Shown here one piece after another: positions 3,375-10,203 of a stretch of DNA of 34,071 nt. A program made the translations under genes and the position numbers. This DNA comes from a virus (lineage: Duplodnaviria > Heunggongvirae > Uroviricota > Caudoviricetes): IMG/VR virus record IMGVR_UViG_2721755657_000001, positions 1-34,071 of that record, one strand, 5' to 3'. The notes beneath the pieces are model-generated. The model was not told the DNA's origin, did not search any database, and saw nothing but the letters and a program-made list of their open reading frames with translations. The first letter of the stretch is position 1. Each line of letters opens with the position of its first letter.

Positions 3375-3676
3375 TGTCCTGTTCTCGTTCAGTTGTATTA
3401 CTGAATAACGCCTTAAAAATCGCCGTTATGAAAAATGGCGATTTATCTCTTATTCAACTTGGTCTTGATAAAGAAAAACGCGAAATAACTGAGTCTGTTA
3501 TCGCGATTTATCAGAACGAATTAAATCTCCTGTCTGATGTGGTCAATTTACTTGTTAAACGCGCTGTATTTCACAAGCAAATCTCCTCCGTGGATGAACT
3601 GACGAAATTAACGACAGAAATTGCCAGCTATTGCGCTGATGAATTTAAAAAACTTAACGACAAAAGGAGCTGGTAA
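3374..3676 (+). CDS. Hypothetical early protein (orf81 position)
   Basis: ATG at 3374 with GGAGG SD 7 nt upstream (the track start at 3371 is a TTG). 100 aa. Confidence 0.55.
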   Translation: MSCSRSVVLLNNALKIAVMKNGDLSLIQLGLDKEKREITESVIAIYQNELNLLSDVVNLLVKRAVFHKQISSVDELTKLTTEIASYCADEFKKLNDKRSW

Positions 3677-3900
3677 TGCCGGACAACGTAGATTTTATTC
3701 AGGAACAACAGGCTGAATTACTGGAGCGTCAGATTAACGCGGCAAGGGTAAAACATTGCGGTGCTTCTGCGCTGGTTTGCGAAGAGTGTGACGCGCCAAT
3801 ACCTGCTGCCCGTCGTGCGGCTTATCCGTCAGCCACGCGTTGTGTTTCCTGTCAGTCAGTCTTTGAAGCAAAAAACAAACATTACCGGAGAACGGCATGA
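3676..3900 (+). CDS. TraR/DksA-type C4 zinc-finger protein (orf82 position)
   Basis: 74 aa with CxxC...CxxC (CEECDAPIPAARRAAYPSATRCVSC). AAGGAG SD. TAATG overlap with upstream gene. Confidence 0.7.
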   Translation: MPDNVDFIQEQQAELLERQINAARVKHCGASALVCEECDAPIPAARRAAYPSATRCVSCQSVFEAKNKHYRRTA

Positions 3901-4172
3901 GTATTCGTATTGAAATTGGCGAACGTTATGTCGTTACCAGTGACAGCTTTCAGTTTATTCTCCACGAGAAAAAGAGAGCGGAAAGCGGTAAAAACGCCGG
4001 TCAGGAATGGCTGGCGGTGGTTGGTTATTACCCGAAATTAAGCCAGCTCGTTTCCGGCCTGATGCATCACGATATTCTGACCGGAAGCGCAAAATCTTTT
4101 GCTGATTTAAACGCGCAGGTTGAGCAACTCAGCAAGCGTTGTTCAGAGGCTTTTGGCTCATATGGCCGTTAA
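3897..4172 (+). CDS. Hypothetical early protein (orf83 position)
   Basis: 91-aa ORF, ATGA overlap with the upstream stop, GGAG SD. Its 3' end overlaps the A start. Confidence 0.55.
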   Translation: MSIRIEIGERYVVTSDSFQFILHEKKRAESGKNAGQEWLAVVGYYPKLSQLVSGLMHHDILTGSAKSFADLNAQVEQLSKRCSEAFGSYGR

Positions 4173-6447
4173 AGCCTCCGGGCGTTTTGTCCCTCCGGCA
4201 GCATTTGCCGCAGGCACCGGTAAGACGTTTACCGGTGCTTATGCATGGAACGCGCCACGCGAGGCTGTCGGGCGCGAAAGACCCCTTACACGTGACGAGA
4301 TGCGTCAGGTGCAAGGTGTTTTATCCACGATTAACCGCCTGCCTTACTTTTTGCGTTCGCTGTTTACTTCACGCTATGACTACATCCGGCGCAATAAAAG
4401 CCCGGTACACGGGTTTTATTTCCTCACATCCACTTTTCAGCGTCGTTTATGGCCGCGCATTGAGCGTGTGAATCAGCGCCATGAAATGAACACCGATGCG
4501 TCGTTGCTGTTTCTGGCAGAGCGCGACAAGTATGCGCGCCTGCCGGGAATGAATGACAGAGAGCTGAAAAAGTTTGCCGCCCGTATCTCATCGCTGCTTT
4601 TCATGATGTATGAGGAACTCTGCGATGCATGGGTTGATGCGCATGGCGAGAAAGAATCGCTGTTTACGGATGAGGCGCAGGCTCACCTCTATGGTCATGT
4701 TGCTGGTGCTGCTCGTGCTTTCAATATTTCCCCTCTCTACTGGAAAAAATACCGTAAAGGACAGATGACCACGAGGCAGGCATATTCTGCCATTGCCCGC
4801 CTGTTTAACGATGAGTGGTGGACTCATCAGCTTAAAGGCCAGCGTATGCGCTGGCATGAGGCGTTACTGATAGCTGTCGGGGAGGTTAATAAAGACCGTT
4901 CTCCTTATGCCAGTAAACATGCCATTCGTGATGTGCGTGCGCGCCGCCAGGCAAATCTGGAATTTCTTAAATCGTGTGACCTTGAAAACAGGGAAACCAG
5001 CGAGCGCATCGACCTTATCAGTAAGGTGATGGGCAGTATTTCTAATCCTGAAATTCGCCGGATGGAGCTGATGAACACCATTGCCGGTATTGAGCGTTAC
5101 GCCGCCGCAGAGGGTGATGTGGGGATGTTTATCACGCTGACCACGCCGTCAAAGTATCACCCGACACGTCAGGTCGGAAAAGGCGAAAGTAAAACCGTCC
5201 AGCTAAATCATGGCTGGAACGATGAGGCATTTAATCCAAAGGATGCGCAGCGTTATCTCTGCCGTATCTGGAGCCTGATGCGCACGGCATTCAAGGATAA
5301 TGATTTACAGGTCTACGGTTTGCGTGTCGTCGAGCCACACCACGACGGAACGCCGCACTGGCATATGATGCTTTTTTGTAATCCACGCCAGCGTAACCAG
5401 ATTATCGAAATCATGCGTCGCTATGCGCTCAAAGAGGATGGCGACGAAAGAGGAGCCGCGCGAAACCGTTTTCAGGCAAAACATCTTAACCGGGGCGGTG
5501 CTGCGGGGTATATCGCGAAATACATCTCAAAAAACATCGATGGCTATGCACTGGATGGTCAGCTCGATAACGATACCGGCAGGCCGCTGAAAGATACTGC
5601 TGCGGCTGTTACCGCATGGGCGTCAACGTGGCGCATTCCGCAATTTAAAACGGTTGGTCTGCCGACAATGGGGGCTTACCGTGAACTACGCAAATTGCCT
5701 CGCGGCGTCAGCATTGCTGATGAGTTTGACGAGCGCGTCGAGGCTGCACGCGCCGCTGCAGACAGTGGTGATTTTGCGTTGTATATCAGCGCGCAGGGCG
5801 GGGCAAATGTCCCGCGCGATTGTCAGACTGTCAGGGTCGCCCGTAGCCCGTCGGATGACGTTAACGAGTACGAGGAAGAAGTCGAGAGAGTGGTCGGCAT
5901 TTACGCGCCGCATCTCGGCGCGCGTCATATTCATATCACCAGAACGACGGACTGGCGCATTGTGCCGAAAGTGCCGGTCGTTGAGCCTTTGACGTTAAAA
6001 AGCGGCATCGCCGCGCCTCGGAGTCCTGTCAATAACTGTGGAAAGCTCTCCGGTGGTGATACTTCGTTACCGGTTCCCACACCTTCTGAACATGCCGCAG
6101 CCGTGCTTAATCTGGTTGATGACGGTGTTATCGAATGGAATGAGCCAGAGGTCGTGAGGGCGCTCAGAGGTGCATTAAAACACGGACTGAGAACACCAAA
6201 TCGTCAGCAGAGAAACAGAAGCCTGTTAAAACCACATGAAATAGCGCCATCGGCCAGACTGACCCGGTCGGAACGAACGCAAATTACCCGTATCCGCGTT
6301 GACCTTGCTCAGAACGGTATCAGGCCGCAGCGATGGGAGATTGAGGCGCTGGCGCGTGGGGCAACCGTAAATTATGACGGGAAAAAATTCACGTATCCGG
6401 TCGCTGATGAGTGGCCGGGATTCTCAACAGTAATGGAGTGGACATGA
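4162..6447 (+). CDS. A: Replication initiation protein A (rolling-circle nickase)
   Basis: 761-aa product from the ATG at 4162 (MAVKASGRFVPP...), within ORF 4120..6447. Sequence recalled as P2 gpA. Confidence 0.9.
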   Translation: MAVKASGRFVPPAAFAAGTGKTFTGAYAWNAPREAVGRERPLTRDEMRQVQGVLSTINRLPYFLRSLFTSRYDYIRRNKSPVHGFYFLTSTFQRRLWPRIERVNQRHEMNTDASLLFLAERDKYARLPGMNDRELKKFAARISSLLFMMYEELCDAWVDAHGEKESLFTDEAQAHLYGHVAGAARAFNISPLYWKKYRKGQMTTRQAYSAIARLFNDEWWTHQLKGQRMRWHEALLIAVGEVNKDRSPYASKHAIRDVRARRQANLEFLKSCDLENRETSERIDLISKVMGSISNPEIRRMELMNTIAGIERYAAAEGDVGMFITLTTPSKYHPTRQVGKGESKTVQLNHGWNDEAFNPKDAQRYLCRIWSLMRTAFKDNDLQVYGLRVVEPHHDGTPHWHMMLFCNPRQRNQIIEIMRRYALKEDGDERGAARNRFQAKHLNRGGAAGYIAKYISKNIDGYALDGQLDNDTGRPLKDTAAAVTAWASTWRIPQFKTVGLPTMGAYRELRKLPRGVSIADEFDERVEAARAAADSGDFALYISAQGGANVPRDCQTVRVARSPSDDVNEYEEEVERVVGIYAPHLGARHIHITRTTDWRIVPKVPVVEPLTLKSGIAAPRSPVNNCGKLSGGDTSLPVPTPSEHAAAVLNLVDDGVIEWNEPEVVRALRGALKHGLRTPNRQQRNRSLLKPHEIAPSARLTRSERTQITRIRVDLAQNGIRPQRWEIEALARGATVNYDGKKFTYPVADEWPGFSTVMEWT

Positions 6448-6899
6448 TGGCAAAAATTCACGAGGTAAAGCTGCACGCAAAATATTTCGACCTTGTGCTG
6501 GAAGGAAAGAAACGCGCAGAGTTTCGGAAAAATGACCGTAATTATGAGCGCGGGGACACGTTGATTTTGCATGAATGGGTGCAGGGTGTGTATACGGGGC
6601 GAAAGGTTGAAGCCCGGATAACAGATGTTACTGACCTGTCAGACTGGCTGGAAGATTATGTCTTGCTAAGTATTGAGCGGCTTAATACAGGCGCATATGA
6701 GATTGTGAACTGGAAAGAACTTAGTGAGCGTGGTCTGGTATTCAGAATTAATCATGAAATTATGCATCAGCTCGGCCTTGCTGTTATGTATGAATCAGAG
6801 ACGGGGATGTCTGGCGGGGCAATGGTAGCCACGGATGGAGCATGGAACTATTCAGATGAACAGATGGAGCGTGCAAAGCAAAACGGGTGGCTTGGATAA
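6444..6899 (+). CDS. ASCH/PUA-like (DUF3850-like) domain protein, translationally coupled to A
   Basis: ATG at 6444 overlaps the A stop (ATGA). The N-terminal ~80 aa (KIHEVKLHAKYFDLVLEGKKRAEFRKNDRNYERGDTLILHE) resemble the ASCH GxKxxExR-type fold. Domain call is from motif reading only. Confidence 0.5.
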   Translation: MMAKIHEVKLHAKYFDLVLEGKKRAEFRKNDRNYERGDTLILHEWVQGVYTGRKVEARITDVTDLSDWLEDYVLLSIERLNTGAYEIVNWKELSERGLVFRINHEIMHQLGLAVMYESETGMSGGAMVATDGAWNYSDEQMERAKQNGWLG

Positions 6900-7105
6900 T
6901 GCACAGAATACCAGGCGAGATACCGCACCATAAAACTAAAAATATCAAGCTGATGGCTATTGTTCAGCGTTTACAGCGGATTATGGTCAACGAAAATCTG
7001 ACGCCCGATGAGCTGGTCGGGTGTGCCGAAATAGTACGGGATAATTACGGGCGGCTTAACTATATCGGTCAGTCCAGAGTTGCGCCACCACCACGCAGAC
7101 GATAG
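6899..7105 (+). CDS. Small hypothetical protein (68 aa), coupled to upstream gene
   Basis: ATG at 6899 in a TAATG overlap with the upstream stop. Arg/Pro-rich C-terminus. Backbone-like base composition. Confidence 0.4.
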   Translation: MHRIPGEIPHHKTKNIKLMAIVQRLQRIMVNENLTPDELVGCAEIVRDNYGRLNYIGQSRVAPPPRRR

Positions 7106-7328
7106 AGAACGCCGCCAGTTGTGAAACTTGTTTTCAGGGCTGGCGGGGTTGAACAACGAGCGAAGCGAGACGTTAGTTGACAGACATATTTTTACTACGT
7201 TGGTGCTGGTTTTTGACGGTTGAAAGGAGTTAGGTTGGAGAGCTAACAACTTACAAATATTCAAAAGTAAGCATCCTGTTGCTAACATGAGGTTGATTTT
7301 TTATGTGGATGATGCAAAAAGGATAGCT

Positions 7329-8060
7329 ATGGATACTATAATCGCTTTTCTATCACTCGCTTTTTTCGTTGCTTTCTTCATCGGGCTAATCAAGCCATCA
7401 CTGGTGCGAATGCCAAACCGCAAACGTGCAAGTGCGGTTTATCTCGGAGGAGGTTTTGTATTGAGCATAATTGGTTCAATACTCTATCCAACAGAAAAAA
7501 GCCAGCCAGTTGCTAAAACTGAAACATCAACCGTTGCAGAACACAAAGTCCAAAAAACATTCGAATATGGTGAAAAAACACTCAAGGAATATCGGAACGA
7601 GTCAAAGAAAACACGACACGATATTGTGAATAGTTACATTGATTTTAAGGAAGTTCCAGCCACCGCGTCAGATGCGTTTTATGCCTGCATGAGTGAGTAT
7701 ACATTTACCAAAGATGATGAGTTGAAACTCGGTGATGTTCTTGGGTGGTGCTTTAATGATTATGAAAATGACCCGAGTTCACTAAACAATAAAATCAATC
7801 TTGATACATTTCAGAGTAATTTTAGTGGTTGGGATGGTTCTTATCGTCCATTGGAAAAACTAATTAAAGATAATATGAACGATGATTCATCTTATAAACA
7901 TGTGTCAACGGTATATCATCTGGTTTTGAATAAAGACCCGCATGCCATTGTGAAAACCACGTTTCGCGGAACTAATGCTTATGGCGGAGTAGTGAAACAG
8001 ACGATTGCTGCGCGTGTCAATGTAGAAACAGGTGAGGTTGTATCAATTATAAGTGAGTGA
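7329..8060 (+). CDS. Cargo gene 1 in the A-cos (tin/old) slot: membrane-anchored protein of unknown function
   Basis: ATG at 7329 with AAGGA SD 5 nt upstream (alternative ATG at 7287 has no SD). Two N-terminal hydrophobic segments (IIAFLSLAFFVAFFIGLI, VYLGGGFVLSIIGSILY) followed by a ~190-aa soluble domain. Visibly AT-rich relative to flanking phage genes. Confidence 0.65.
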   Translation: MDTIIAFLSLAFFVAFFIGLIKPSLVRMPNRKRASAVYLGGGFVLSIIGSILYPTEKSQPVAKTETSTVAEHKVQKTFEYGEKTLKEYRNESKKTRHDIVNSYIDFKEVPATASDAFYACMSEYTFTKDDELKLGDVLGWCFNDYENDPSSLNNKINLDTFQSNFSGWDGSYRPLEKLIKDNMNDDSSYKHVSTVYHLVLNKDPHAIVKTTFRGTNAYGGVVKQTIAARVNVETGEVVSIISE

Positions 8061-8158
8061 ACTGTGCCAGAATGATAAAGATGCCAGCATTTATGCTGGC
8101 AATCATAAAAATAGTGACTAGCAAAAATTGGTGTCTGGTTTTAATGTGAGATTAGAAA

Positions 8159-8857
8159 ATGAAGAGATGTAAATATATTTTAAGAGGTTTGTTGCTGAAG
8201 TTTAAAAGTATAAGTTCTATGCATTTGTTATTTGTTTTAATAACGGCTTGTCTATTCTTTTTTATAGGGTGTTACGTGGGTTATAGTGGTATTGGTTTGA
8301 ATGGTGACACTAAATACCAATTAATTACAATACCTTTTTTGACCATGTTGGGTACTTGGGTTTCTGGGGTGGGAGCATTTTCTGCTGTTGCGACATCATT
8401 GTTGTTGGCACACCGTTCGCTAAAGGAAAATTCAGAAGAAATTGCTATTCGATATAGCATGGTGTTAATACCATCAATGTACTTACCTAGCACTACAGAT
8501 ACAGCAATATCAATAACCATAACAAACAAAAGAAAAGTAAGGAGTAATATTCAATCGGTTGTTTTGCAATTTTCTAATAATAAAGCAATGAATATATGGG
8601 TAAACCCCGGGACGCTTATCTCTGGCAAGTTACCGCATGTTTTAGAAGACTATGGTGATATATTGACGCTTATAATTCCAGAGAGCATTACCGCATCAGT
8701 AACTGATGAGGGGTTCGTAAAAGAATGTCAGGGGAATACTCTTGGAGAAGGTAGCGTCGTAGTTCACACAACGACAAAAACATTTGTAAAAAAATTAACA
8801 TTACCTCAAATTAAGCCATTTAATGATAAATTTAAGTCTGTATTGACGAAGCCGTAA
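8159..8857 (+). CDS. Cargo gene 2 in the A-cos slot: membrane/lipoprotein-like protein of unknown function
   Basis: 232-aa ORF. Basic N-terminus, then hydrophobic stretches (LLFVLITACLFFFIGC, possible lipobox FIGC; second stretch AFSAVATSLLLA), then a ~140-aa soluble C-terminal region. AT-rich. 98 bp downstream of cargo gene 1 on the same strand. Confidence 0.6.
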   Translation: MKRCKYILRGLLLKFKSISSMHLLFVLITACLFFFIGCYVGYSGIGLNGDTKYQLITIPFLTMLGTWVSGVGAFSAVATSLLLAHRSLKENSEEIAIRYSMVLIPSMYLPSTTDTAISITITNKRKVRSNIQSVVLQFSNNKAMNIWVNPGTLISGKLPHVLEDYGDILTLIIPESITASVTDEGFVKECQGNTLGEGSVVVHTTTKTFVKKLTLPQIKPFNDKFKSVLTKP

Positions 8858-8981
8858 GAGGTGCGTTGCGTTGCATTTTTTTGCATCTTCAAGGATTAAT
8901 TTCTGCATCTTTATTTTGCCAGTACTGATGTGCTTTTAATGGACTCATGCAACTGCATTAAAATCGACCCATGAAGCGGGC

Positions 8982-9000
8982 GGGCGAGGCGGGGAAAGCA
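8982..9000. other. cos site (19-nt cohesive-end sequence)
   Basis: GGCGAGGCGGGGAAAGCAC matches the P2 19-nt cohesive end as I recall it. Lies between the accessory slot and Q, as in P2. Confidence 0.8.
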
Positions 9001-9141
9001 CTGCGCGCTGGCGGTGGTGCTGATTTTATTTTCCAGCGTCTCAGCGCGTCGTGAAGGCGCTTAGTCTGCCCGTTGGGGGTTGGTGTGTCTGCGGGGTGTT
9101 TTGTGCGGTGGTGAGCGAGTGAGGGCGTGATGACGGGGTAT

Positions 9142-9163
9142 AAAAAAGCCGCCCGCAGGCGGC
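9142..9163 (-). terminator. Intrinsic terminator downstream of Q (minus strand)
   Basis: Minus-strand GCCGCC-tgcg-GGCGGC followed by UUUUUU, immediately after the Q stop. Confidence 0.7.
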
Positions 9164-9168
9164 GATGT

Positions 9169-10203
9169 TCAGCCGTTGTCAGTGTCCAGTGAGTAGTTTT
9201 TAAAGCGGATGACCTCCTGACCGAGCCAGCCGTTTATCTCGCGGATCCTGTCCTGTAGCGGGATAAGCTCATTGCGGACAAAGACCTTTGCCACTTTCTC
9301 AATATCACCCAGCGACCCGACGTTCTCCGGCTTGCCGCCCATCAACTGAAAGGGGATGCGGTGCGCGTCCAGCAGGTCAGCGGCGCTGGCTTTTTTGATA
9401 TTAAAAAAATCGTCCTTCGTTGCCACTTCACTGAGCGGGATAATTTTGATGCCGTCGGCTTTCCCCTGTGGGGCATAGAGAAACAGATTTTTAAAGTTGT
9501 TGCGGCCTTTCGACTTCACCATGTTTTCGCGGAGCATTTCGATATCGTTGCGATCCTGCACGGCATCAGTGACGTACATGATGTATCCGGCATGAGCGCC
9601 GTTTTCGTAATACTTGCGGCGGAACAGTGTGGCTGATTCATTCAGCCAGGCAGAATTAAGGGCGCTGAGATATTCCGGCAGGCCGTACAGCTCCTGATTG
9701 ATATCCGGCTCCAGCAGGTGAAACACGGAGCCGGGCGTGAAGGCTGTCGGCTCGTTGAAGGACGGCACCCACCAGTAAACATCCTCCTCCACGCCACGGC
9801 GGGTATATTTTGCCGGTGAGGTTTCCAGTCTGATGACCTTACCGGTGGTGCTGTAACGCTTTTCCAGAAACGCATTACCGAACACCAGAAAATCCAGCAC
9901 AAAGCGGCTGAAATCCTGTTGCGAAAGCCACGGATGCGGGATAAATGTCGAGGCCAGAATATTGCGTTTAACGTAAATCGGTGAGCTGTGATGCACGGCA
10001 GCACGCAGGCTTTTCGCCAGACCGGTAAAGCTGACCGGCGGCTCATACCATCTGCCGTTACTGATGCACTCGACGTAATCCAGAATGTCACGGCGGTCGA
10101 GTACCGGCACCGGCTCACCAAAGGTGAAAGCCTCCATTTTCGGGGCGCTGGCGGTCATTTTTTTTGCCTCAGGTTGCGGTGTTTTCCCTTTTTTCTTGCT
10201 CAT
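9169..10203 (-). CDS. Q: Portal protein
   Basis: 344-aa ORF in the P2 Q position and orientation, divergent from O. Overlaps the start of terminase P. Confidence 0.9.
   Translation of the reverse strand: MSKKKGKTPQPEAKKMTASAPKMEAFTFGEPVPVLDRRDILDYVECISNGRWYEPPVSFTGLAKSLRAAVHHSSPIYVKRNILASTFIPHPWLSQQDFSRFVLDFLVFGNAFLEKRYSTTGKVIRLETSPAKYTRRGVEEDVYWWVPSFNEPTAFTPGSVFHLLEPDINQELYGLPEYLSALNSAWLNESATLFRRKYYENGAHAGYIMYVTDAVQDRNDIEMLRENMVKSKGRNNFKNLFLYAPQGKADGIKIIPLSEVATKDDFFNIKKASAADLLDAHRIPFQLMGGKPENVGSLGDIEKVAKVFVRNELIPLQDRIREINGWLGQEVIRFKNYSLDTDNG

Follow-up and report, generated by a model that had tools for sequence, protein, structure and literature searches.

The stretch of DNA analysed here is the whole of virus record IMGVR_UViG_2721755657_000001 (Caudoviricetes; 34,071 nucleotides (nt), hereafter called the window). 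In the hotspot between replication gene A (gpA) and the cos site of a P2-type phage or prophage, it carries two genes on the same (+) strand, labelled g1 (open reading frame (ORF) 7329..8060, 243 amino acids (aa)) and g2 (ORF 8159..8857, 232 aa). As judged by sequence comparison, g1 is the orthologue of Orf97 of coliphage 186, and g2 is a separate, rapidly diverging inner-membrane cargo protein of an already catalogued, uncharacterised family. A reading of the sequence alone had proposed that these two AT-rich genes, at positions 7106-8980, form an undescribed two-gene module for superinfection exclusion or abortive infection. This interval is 99.4% identical to the corresponding DNA of Peduovirus P22H4 and Escherichia phage 9W. 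Both ORFs and their AT-richness were confirmed: the G + C content (GC) is 0.335-0.40 in every 400-nt segment of 7201-8800 against 0.50-0.58 in the flanks on both sides, and 36.8% over 7179..8945 against 52.4% in the remainder of the window. The features of the region are collected in Table 1; numbers of the type L002, L035 or L049 designate the loci with which it was compared.

Table 1. Features between replication gene A and the portal gene, with the predicted parts of both cargo proteins (positions in the window; TM, transmembrane helix; Ig, immunoglobulin)
Feature	Position	Strand	Remarks
Replication gene A (gpA)	4120..6447		
ASCH/DUF3850 plus DUF7415 protein (orf91-like)	6411..6899		next after gpA
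Small ORF, phrog_11386	6887..7105		68-72 aa; conserved
70-nt double-hairpin element	7108..7177	+	backbone; left edge of hotspot
AT-rich leader of g1	7179..7328	+	without tum, LexA box or strong sigma-70 consensus
g1, coliphage 186 orf97 homologue	7329..8060	+	243 aa
g1 TM1	7335..7391		residues 3-21
g1 basic loop, predicted cytoplasmic			between TM1 and TM2
g1 TM2	7428..7484		residues 34-52
g1 disordered linker			residues 57-74
g1 domain, predicted periplasmic	7560..8057		residues ~78-243
g1 invariant cysteine C120	7686..7688		
g1 invariant cysteine C141	7749..7751		
g1 motif NFSGWDGSYRPLEKLIK	7818..7868		
Perfect 8-bp hairpin, loop TTTA	8082..8101	+	21 nt past g1 stop codon
g2, 2-TM protein with Ig-like domain	8159..8857	+	232 aa
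g2 TM1	8225..8281		residues 23-41; after basic N-terminus
g2 short acidic loop			between TM1 and TM2
g2 TM2	~8336..8413		within helix 54-90
g2 Ig-like beta-sandwich	8441..8794		residues 95-212; then C-terminal helix
Restart of backbone homology (~8945), then cos core	8945..9001	no strand	
Portal Q	9169..10203	-	

The limits of the slot were set by pairwise comparison with loci bearing other cargo, which places the variable DNA at ~7179 to 8945. Backbone homology restarts at 8945 against all compared P2/186-like loci, and homology with 186-type orf97 loci starts at 7279. The 73 nt at 7106..7178 are backbone common to P2 and Wphi, not cargo, so that the interval first proposed for the module has to be trimmed at its left end while its variable core stands. 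The 19-mer ggcgaggcggggaaagcac, read directly in the sequence at 8983..9001, is taken by us to be the cos core, the P2 cohesive end. The gpA-Q slot of P2 is a recognised hotspot (PMC9122126), and the locus comparison agreed with the sequence-only reading in showing it to be variable. Prevalence was surveyed in 5,426 complete E. coli genomes. The portal gene was found at 1,939 places in 1,665 genomes, g1 at 85 places in 83 genomes (about 4% of E. coli P2 slots), and the window's g2 allele at 5 places in 5 genomes. On these counts both genes are variable cargo.

The same slot holds Tin and Old in P2. Old, an ABC-type ATPase plus TOPRIM nuclease, has about 590 aa against the 243 and 232 aa of g1 and g2, in neither of which an ATPase or nuclease domain was detected with Pfam, NCBIfam or PADLOC. 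Neither P2 nor Wphi was among the matches when g1 and g2 were compared by tblastn with a collection of 50,697 phage records, and only the 73 nt of backbone in 7106..8980 align with P2 and Wphi DNA. The initial statement that the pair is neither Old nor Tin and shows no catalytic motif was thus upheld. Searches of PADLOC-DB v2 gave no match for g1 or g2, and scattered chance-level matches across the 30 g1 and 26 g2 family members.

Direct comparison of g1 with 186 Orf97 gave a gap-free alignment with 78% identity over 241 of the 243 residues (77.6% by tblastn). The protein belongs to phrog_3403 of the PHROGs database (function unknown; E = 8e-146 over residues 1-242), and relatives occur in 33 of the phage records searched by tblastn, coliphage 186 among these; Pfam, NCBIfam and PADLOC scans of g1 gave no significant match. 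The start at 7329 is backed by the annotation and by the g1 family alignment. The ORF itself runs from 7287 to 8060, and an in-frame ATG at 7287 was rejected as the start, having no support in that alignment. Ratios of nonsynonymous to synonymous substitution rates (dN/dS) lie at 0.08-0.17 when E. coli alleles are compared and at 0.03-0.05 in comparisons across genera, and g1 is under strong purifying selection. The gene had been described before, as orf97 of 186 (defined in 1996), and the term "undescribed" does not apply to it.

In the 186 record (NC_001317), the order is the p95 promoter with a LexA site, tum (antirepressor), the partial terminator t95a, orf97, the terminator t95b and cos. 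According to this record the SOS response induces orf97 together with tum, and a note on orf97 reads "expression from plasmid blocks 186 infection". The p95-tum-orf97 operon is credited by the citing literature to Brumby, Lamont, Dodd and Egan (1996). Since orf97 was also found in about 22 of the 28 phage records with a close Tum, its presence in the SOS operon is the rule, with exceptions, for the 186-type lineage. The window shares with 186 the position of the gene between gene A and cos, the conserved 70-nt element close by and a hairpin after the gene. Unlike orf97 in 186, g1 is not accompanied by tum, a p95 promoter or a LexA box, and only a degenerate t95a hairpin is present. The 70-nt element is to the left of g1, whereas in 186 it is to the right of the gene; the backbone is P2-type (non-inducible), and an extra cargo gene comes after g1. 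No DinI/Tum ORF was found between gpA and g1, and no LexA box (CTGT-N8-ACAG, at most one mismatch) in 6864-9985, which covers ~460 nt upstream of g1. A sigma-70 scan gave nothing on the + strand in 7179..7328 and no convincing promoter for g1 or g2. A gene of the SOS operon of 186-type phages has moved, losing its regulation, to the slot that holds cargo in a P2-type backbone. As tum and the LexA box have gone, expression of g1 would depend on transcription running on from the early operon, or else on a weak promoter that belongs to g1 itself.

The structure of g1 was modelled using AlphaFold2 and a 30-sequence alignment (predicted local distance difference test score, pLDDT, of 82 overall and >90 in the C-terminal domain). 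The model has membrane helices at residues 2-21 and 31-52, and hydropathy likewise places two hydrophobic helices at the start; the C-terminal domain comprises a helical subdomain (85-181) and a four-stranded antiparallel sheet (190-242). In 25 family members, the TM1-TM2 loop has a mean of 4.7 lysine or arginine residues and 0 aspartate or glutamate, while the N-terminus has none. C120 and C141, both in the C-terminal domain, are invariant in all 30 sequences and are the sole conserved cysteines, and distant relatives carry lipoprotein signals (LAGC, LVGC) instead of the membrane anchor. The charge bias, the invariant cysteines, the lipoprotein-anchored relatives and an HdeA-like fold together argue for a periplasmic C-terminal domain, of ~165 residues and probably disulfide-bonded. 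Orf97 thereby acquires a testable architecture (two-helix anchor, basic cytoplasmic loop, disulfide-bonded periplasmic domain), and experiments can therefore be aimed at the genome-entry step.

The fold likeness concerns the helical half of g1, which resembles HdeA/HdeB, Tai4, Rap1a and YmgD at 5-16% sequence identity. These are small periplasmic helical, disulfide-bonded proteins, beyond which g1 possesses an extra helix plus the four-strand sheet module and the membrane anchor. Profile searches against PDB sequences found no sequence-level relation of g1 to these proteins and, at E up to 1, no match for g1 or g2. Foldseek comparison of g1 with viral structures returned only uncharacterised proteins and weak lipoprotein matches. 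An exhaustive g1 profile search gave 2,830 representative clusters (E up to 0.001). The last ~85 residues of the Orf97 domain (WDGS[YH]RxLE...RGKNAFGG), for which there is no Pfam model, recur in many architectures, preceded by a membrane helix, a lipoprotein signal or a zinc-ribbon-plus-membrane anchor. Thousands of protein clusters of distant bacteria contain the Orf97 domain or just its last ~85 residues; P0174, P0179 (L027, Oxalobacter, 4938-5522), P0266, P0277 and P0287 are examples, with varied anchors.

T4 Sp and Imm, P1 Sim and HK97 gp15 are phage-encoded membrane-anchored or periplasmic proteins that halt superinfecting phage after adsorption, and their likeness to g1 is a functional analogy only. 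By this analogy, the two-helix inner-membrane anchor of g1 would present the ~165-residue domain to the periplasm, where it may stop incoming P2/186-like phages at the adsorption step or later, with genome entry as the probable stage, by a block resembling that of T4 Sp/Imm or P1 Sim. That 186 Orf97 is annotated as blocking 186 infection supports the exclusion role. The SOS control in 186 suggests that the gene may originally have served to shield the induced cell from reinfection. Of the two functions first put forward, exclusion has thus gained support for g1 through homology to 186 Orf97, and nothing specific to abortive infection was found.

Against this reading stands the unlikely alternative that g1 is not anti-phage at all and that the block of 186 is a side effect of overexpression. 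g1 would then be an envelope-related factor of lysogenic conversion or phage development, for instance a tethered periplasmic chaperone-like or inhibitor-like protein, a protein of envelope protection or an immunity-like protein acting against a peptidoglycan hydrolase. The likeness of its helical half to the acid-stress chaperones HdeA/HdeB and to the type VI secretion system amidase-immunity proteins Tai4 and Rap1a points that way. So does the timing in 186, where the gene is SOS-induced with the antirepressor at prophage induction, not in the stable lysogen. The few distant members examined from the superfamily of 2,830 representative clusters have no obvious phage context, and intact orphan copies occur among chromosomal genes. 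Intact orf97 homologues with 51-55% identity were found outside P2-like prophages at four loci: L021 (Enterobacter asburiae, 5001-5732), L019 (Yersinia rohdei, 5001-5729), and L018 and L024 (both 5001-5730). The neighbours are dps, rhtA and ompX for one copy and an integrase fragment for another, and the remaining two copies immediately precede an integrase gene; outside P2-like prophages orf97 is kept as an orphan or carried on other elements.

The second gene encodes two membrane helices followed by a folded domain, by both the AlphaFold2 model and hydropathy, so that for g2 as for g1 the predicted succession of a hydrophobic start and a soluble domain was borne out. It is under purifying selection (dN/dS 0.33), and had no match in Pfam, NCBIfam, PADLOC or PDB sequences. 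A profile search recovered a g2 family from Escherichia, Salmonella, Klebsiella, Citrobacter, Serratia and Enterobacter, the members of which share 17-30% identity with the window's g2. A full-length homologue with 50% identity in Salmonella phage PHB48 supports M1 as the start. Invariant residues are concentrated in TM2 (M63, G65, W67, S69, A76, S80), the small ones among these (G65, S69, A76, S80) being at helix-packing spacing, and the soluble domain is highly variable between lineages. The topology signal is modest: the N-terminus has a mean of 1.6 lysine or arginine residues and the TM1-TM2 loop is net negative, a charge bias suggesting that both termini are cytoplasmic; the Ig-like domain is then probably cytoplasmic as well. 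Our best guess, held with low confidence, is that g2 may act on its own as a membrane factor of exclusion or defence; its conserved TM2 would mediate oligomerisation or membrane action, and its variable Ig-like domain would recognise a phage component. For a plating screen g2 would be a sensible choice.

The same architecture, in which two membrane helices at the N-terminus are joined to a C-terminal beta domain (a beta-sandwich in g2), is shared with the Cap15-type 2TM effectors of cyclic-oligonucleotide-based anti-phage signalling systems (CBASS). This raises the doubtful possibility that g2 is an abortive-infection effector akin to them, disrupting the membrane once its cytoplasmic domain binds a phage product. 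The conserved membrane core, the hypervariable soluble domain and the location in a defence hotspot would suit such an effector. The homology and the gene neighbourhood expected of a CBASS effector were not found: the best match to the PADLOC "2TM Effector" model, from 1 of 26 family members, has E = 0.035, and in place of an adjacent cyclase the neighbours are orf97 and cos.

The view of g1 and g2 as a two-gene module had to be given up, each being found alone in the slot and g1 also with unrelated partners. In Kluyvera and Erwinia, g1 is the sole gene of the slot, and over all loci it has at least 6 different downstream partners. Those found in E. coli include three deeply diverged lineages of the g2 family and also unrelated proteins of 260 aa (tail-anchored), 224 aa and 429 aa. 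Examples of such cargo after orf97 are the 429-aa protein of L044 (E. coli 38M23CPO005, 3445-4734), the 224-aa soluble protein of L041 (3492-4166), and a 575-aa protein accompanied by a 185-aa membrane protein in L022 (Rahnella, 5801-7528). None of the 20 species-representative loci with a g1 homologue has a g2-family gene. Conversely, Serratia proteamaculans (L039) and Enterobacter asburiae (L035) have g2-family genes in a slot that lacks g1. In 186, orf97 occurs without g2, and the phenotype annotated in the record was obtained with orf97 alone. Where g1 alleles with different partners were compared, homology breaks at 8036..8051, within the last ~8 codons of g1, so that its C-terminal tail varies with the downstream cassette (…VETGEVVSIISE, …IKTGKVISIIDN, …VRTGEIDSILDN); from these alignments, a recombination junction is placed inside g1.

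The catalogue of Rousset et al. (2022) treats the two genes in the same manner. In its Table S5B, g1 is the single-gene hypothetical entry #12 ("2 TM", 210 occurrences), one g2-family lineage is the separate single-gene entry #30 ("2 TM", 119 occurrences), and the 260-aa alternative partner is #68 ("1 TM", 62 occurrences); on this count, too, neither gene type is undescribed. A peptide search of the supplements matched these entries in Table S5 only, with no match among the tested systems that Table S2 lists, and gave none for the window's own g2 lineage in the part of Table S5 searched. Literature searches for tests of either protein gave catalogue entries only. No paper linking #12 with 186 orf97 was found in the searchable literature, and the record can now be corrected: an entry among the 30 most abundant "hypothetical" ones of the hotspot is 186 orf97, with its infection-blocking note. 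Both the hotspot and g1, its main gene here, were already known, and nothing in this is surprising to a specialist.

A joint action of the two proteins is nevertheless suggested by their frequent adjacency. A g2-family gene directly follows g1 in E. coli (three lineages), Klebsiella, Citrobacter, Serratia and Salmonella phage PHB48, and 6 of 8 sampled g2-family lineages adjoin g1, though g1 is present in only about 4% of E. coli slots. Both genes are also retained in a degraded P2-like prophage of Serratia marcescens. In a two-component membrane system, g1 would sense or block periplasmic events and g2 would be its inner-membrane partner or effector. Besides the occurrence of either gene without the other, the hairpin or terminator that separates the two speaks against such a system, and much of the adjacency can be put down to position, orf97 lying at the slot's left edge. 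A two-component system is accordingly judged distinctly improbable. The Serratia marcescens prophage (L008-L010, 2959-10135) lies between chromosomal genes and keeps only a gpA fragment, the orf97 homologue, the g2-family gene, a gene for a 1,022-aa SIR2_2 protein and a portal fragment; here the cargo has outlived the phage.

The best explanation for the locus is that of two independent cargo genes, g1 being the 186 Orf97 orthologue and likely acting in superinfection exclusion at the envelope, and g2 being a separate membrane protein, perhaps a factor of exclusion or defence. We give this explanation as a whole a probability of slightly more than one half (about 0.55). Several points weigh against it. 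The exclusion phenotype goes back to a one-line annotation by the depositors of the 186 record, and a phenotype of plasmid expression can be an artefact of overexpression. Because no promoter or LexA box was found, expression of g1 in the lysogen is uncertain, and g1 may share the silencing by H-NS that has been shown for other AT-rich P2 cargo. For g2, the topology signal is modest and the role proposed is a guess. Finally, the proportion of g2 lineages lying beside g1 leaves room for some functional coupling of the two. A wider version of the two-cargo-gene explanation is improbable as it stands: the g2 family would be a new single-gene membrane anti-phage factor (a TM core as effector and a hypervariable Ig-like sensor), and the Orf97 domain would define an unnamed extracytoplasmic superfamily, anchored by membrane helices or as lipoproteins, that widely blocks phage genome entry.

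The palindrome noticed between the two genes was confirmed, with the extent 8082..8101 and the structure TGCCAGCA-TTTA-TGCTGGCA. When the 98-nt intergenic region was shuffled 20,000 times, a perfect hairpin of at least 8 bp arose in 190 shuffles (<1%); the proportion was about 20% when the hairpin could lie anywhere in the 1.9 kb. The palindrome is unchanged in L047, whose g2 differs by 6.8%. A strong hairpin is present in 9 of 10 orf97 3' flanks (z -3.3 to -6.0) and the stem sequences differ, which suggests, in so far as sequence comparison can tell, selection on structure rather than on sequence; the palindrome is the window's version of this orf97 3' hairpin and marks the boundary between two cassettes. 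It was rejected as a plain intrinsic terminator, no uridine tract following it on the + (coding) strand, and for this reason no more than weak termination, or a role as the 3'-end structure of an RNA, can be ascribed to it. In IHE3034, T8 follows the orf97 3' hairpin. Hairpins after the orf97 stop were located at 8061-8120 in the window, 5956-6015 in L002, 4962-5021 in L003, 4960-5019 in L004 and 3333-3392 in L041, and several of the orf97 3' hairpins resemble the 70-nt element's first stem, diverged in both of its arms.

The 70-nt element itself has 92-96% identity in P2, Wphi and Yersinia P2-like phages, and its conservation, which extends over seven genera, exceeds that of the g1 coding sequence. 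Its predicted fold consists of an 18-bp hairpin and a second, smaller hairpin (minimum free energy -33.3 kcal/mol, z = -4.9). In 186-type genomes it is situated 9 nt past the orf97 stop, and in E. coli P2-type genomes before the cargo. The identification of the element with the 186 terminator t95b was rejected, the element lying upstream of t95b and being distinct from it. An Rfam search of 6800..9300, the element included, gave no match. Possible roles of the element are that of an RNA structure closing an operon and that of an anchor in the exchange of cassettes. Further copies were located in L049 (phage 186, 5241-5309), L011 (5741-5809), L005 (4893-4962), L031 (3892-3961) and L035 (3548-3603).

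Two small ORFs flank the cargo. To the right, the annotation of phage 9W has a 48-aa "hypothetical protein" at 8971-9117, which spans the cos core (8983-9001) and is probably no real gene. To the left, the 68-72 aa ORF at 6887-7105 has a dN/dS of about 0.2, and several records carry it without annotation.

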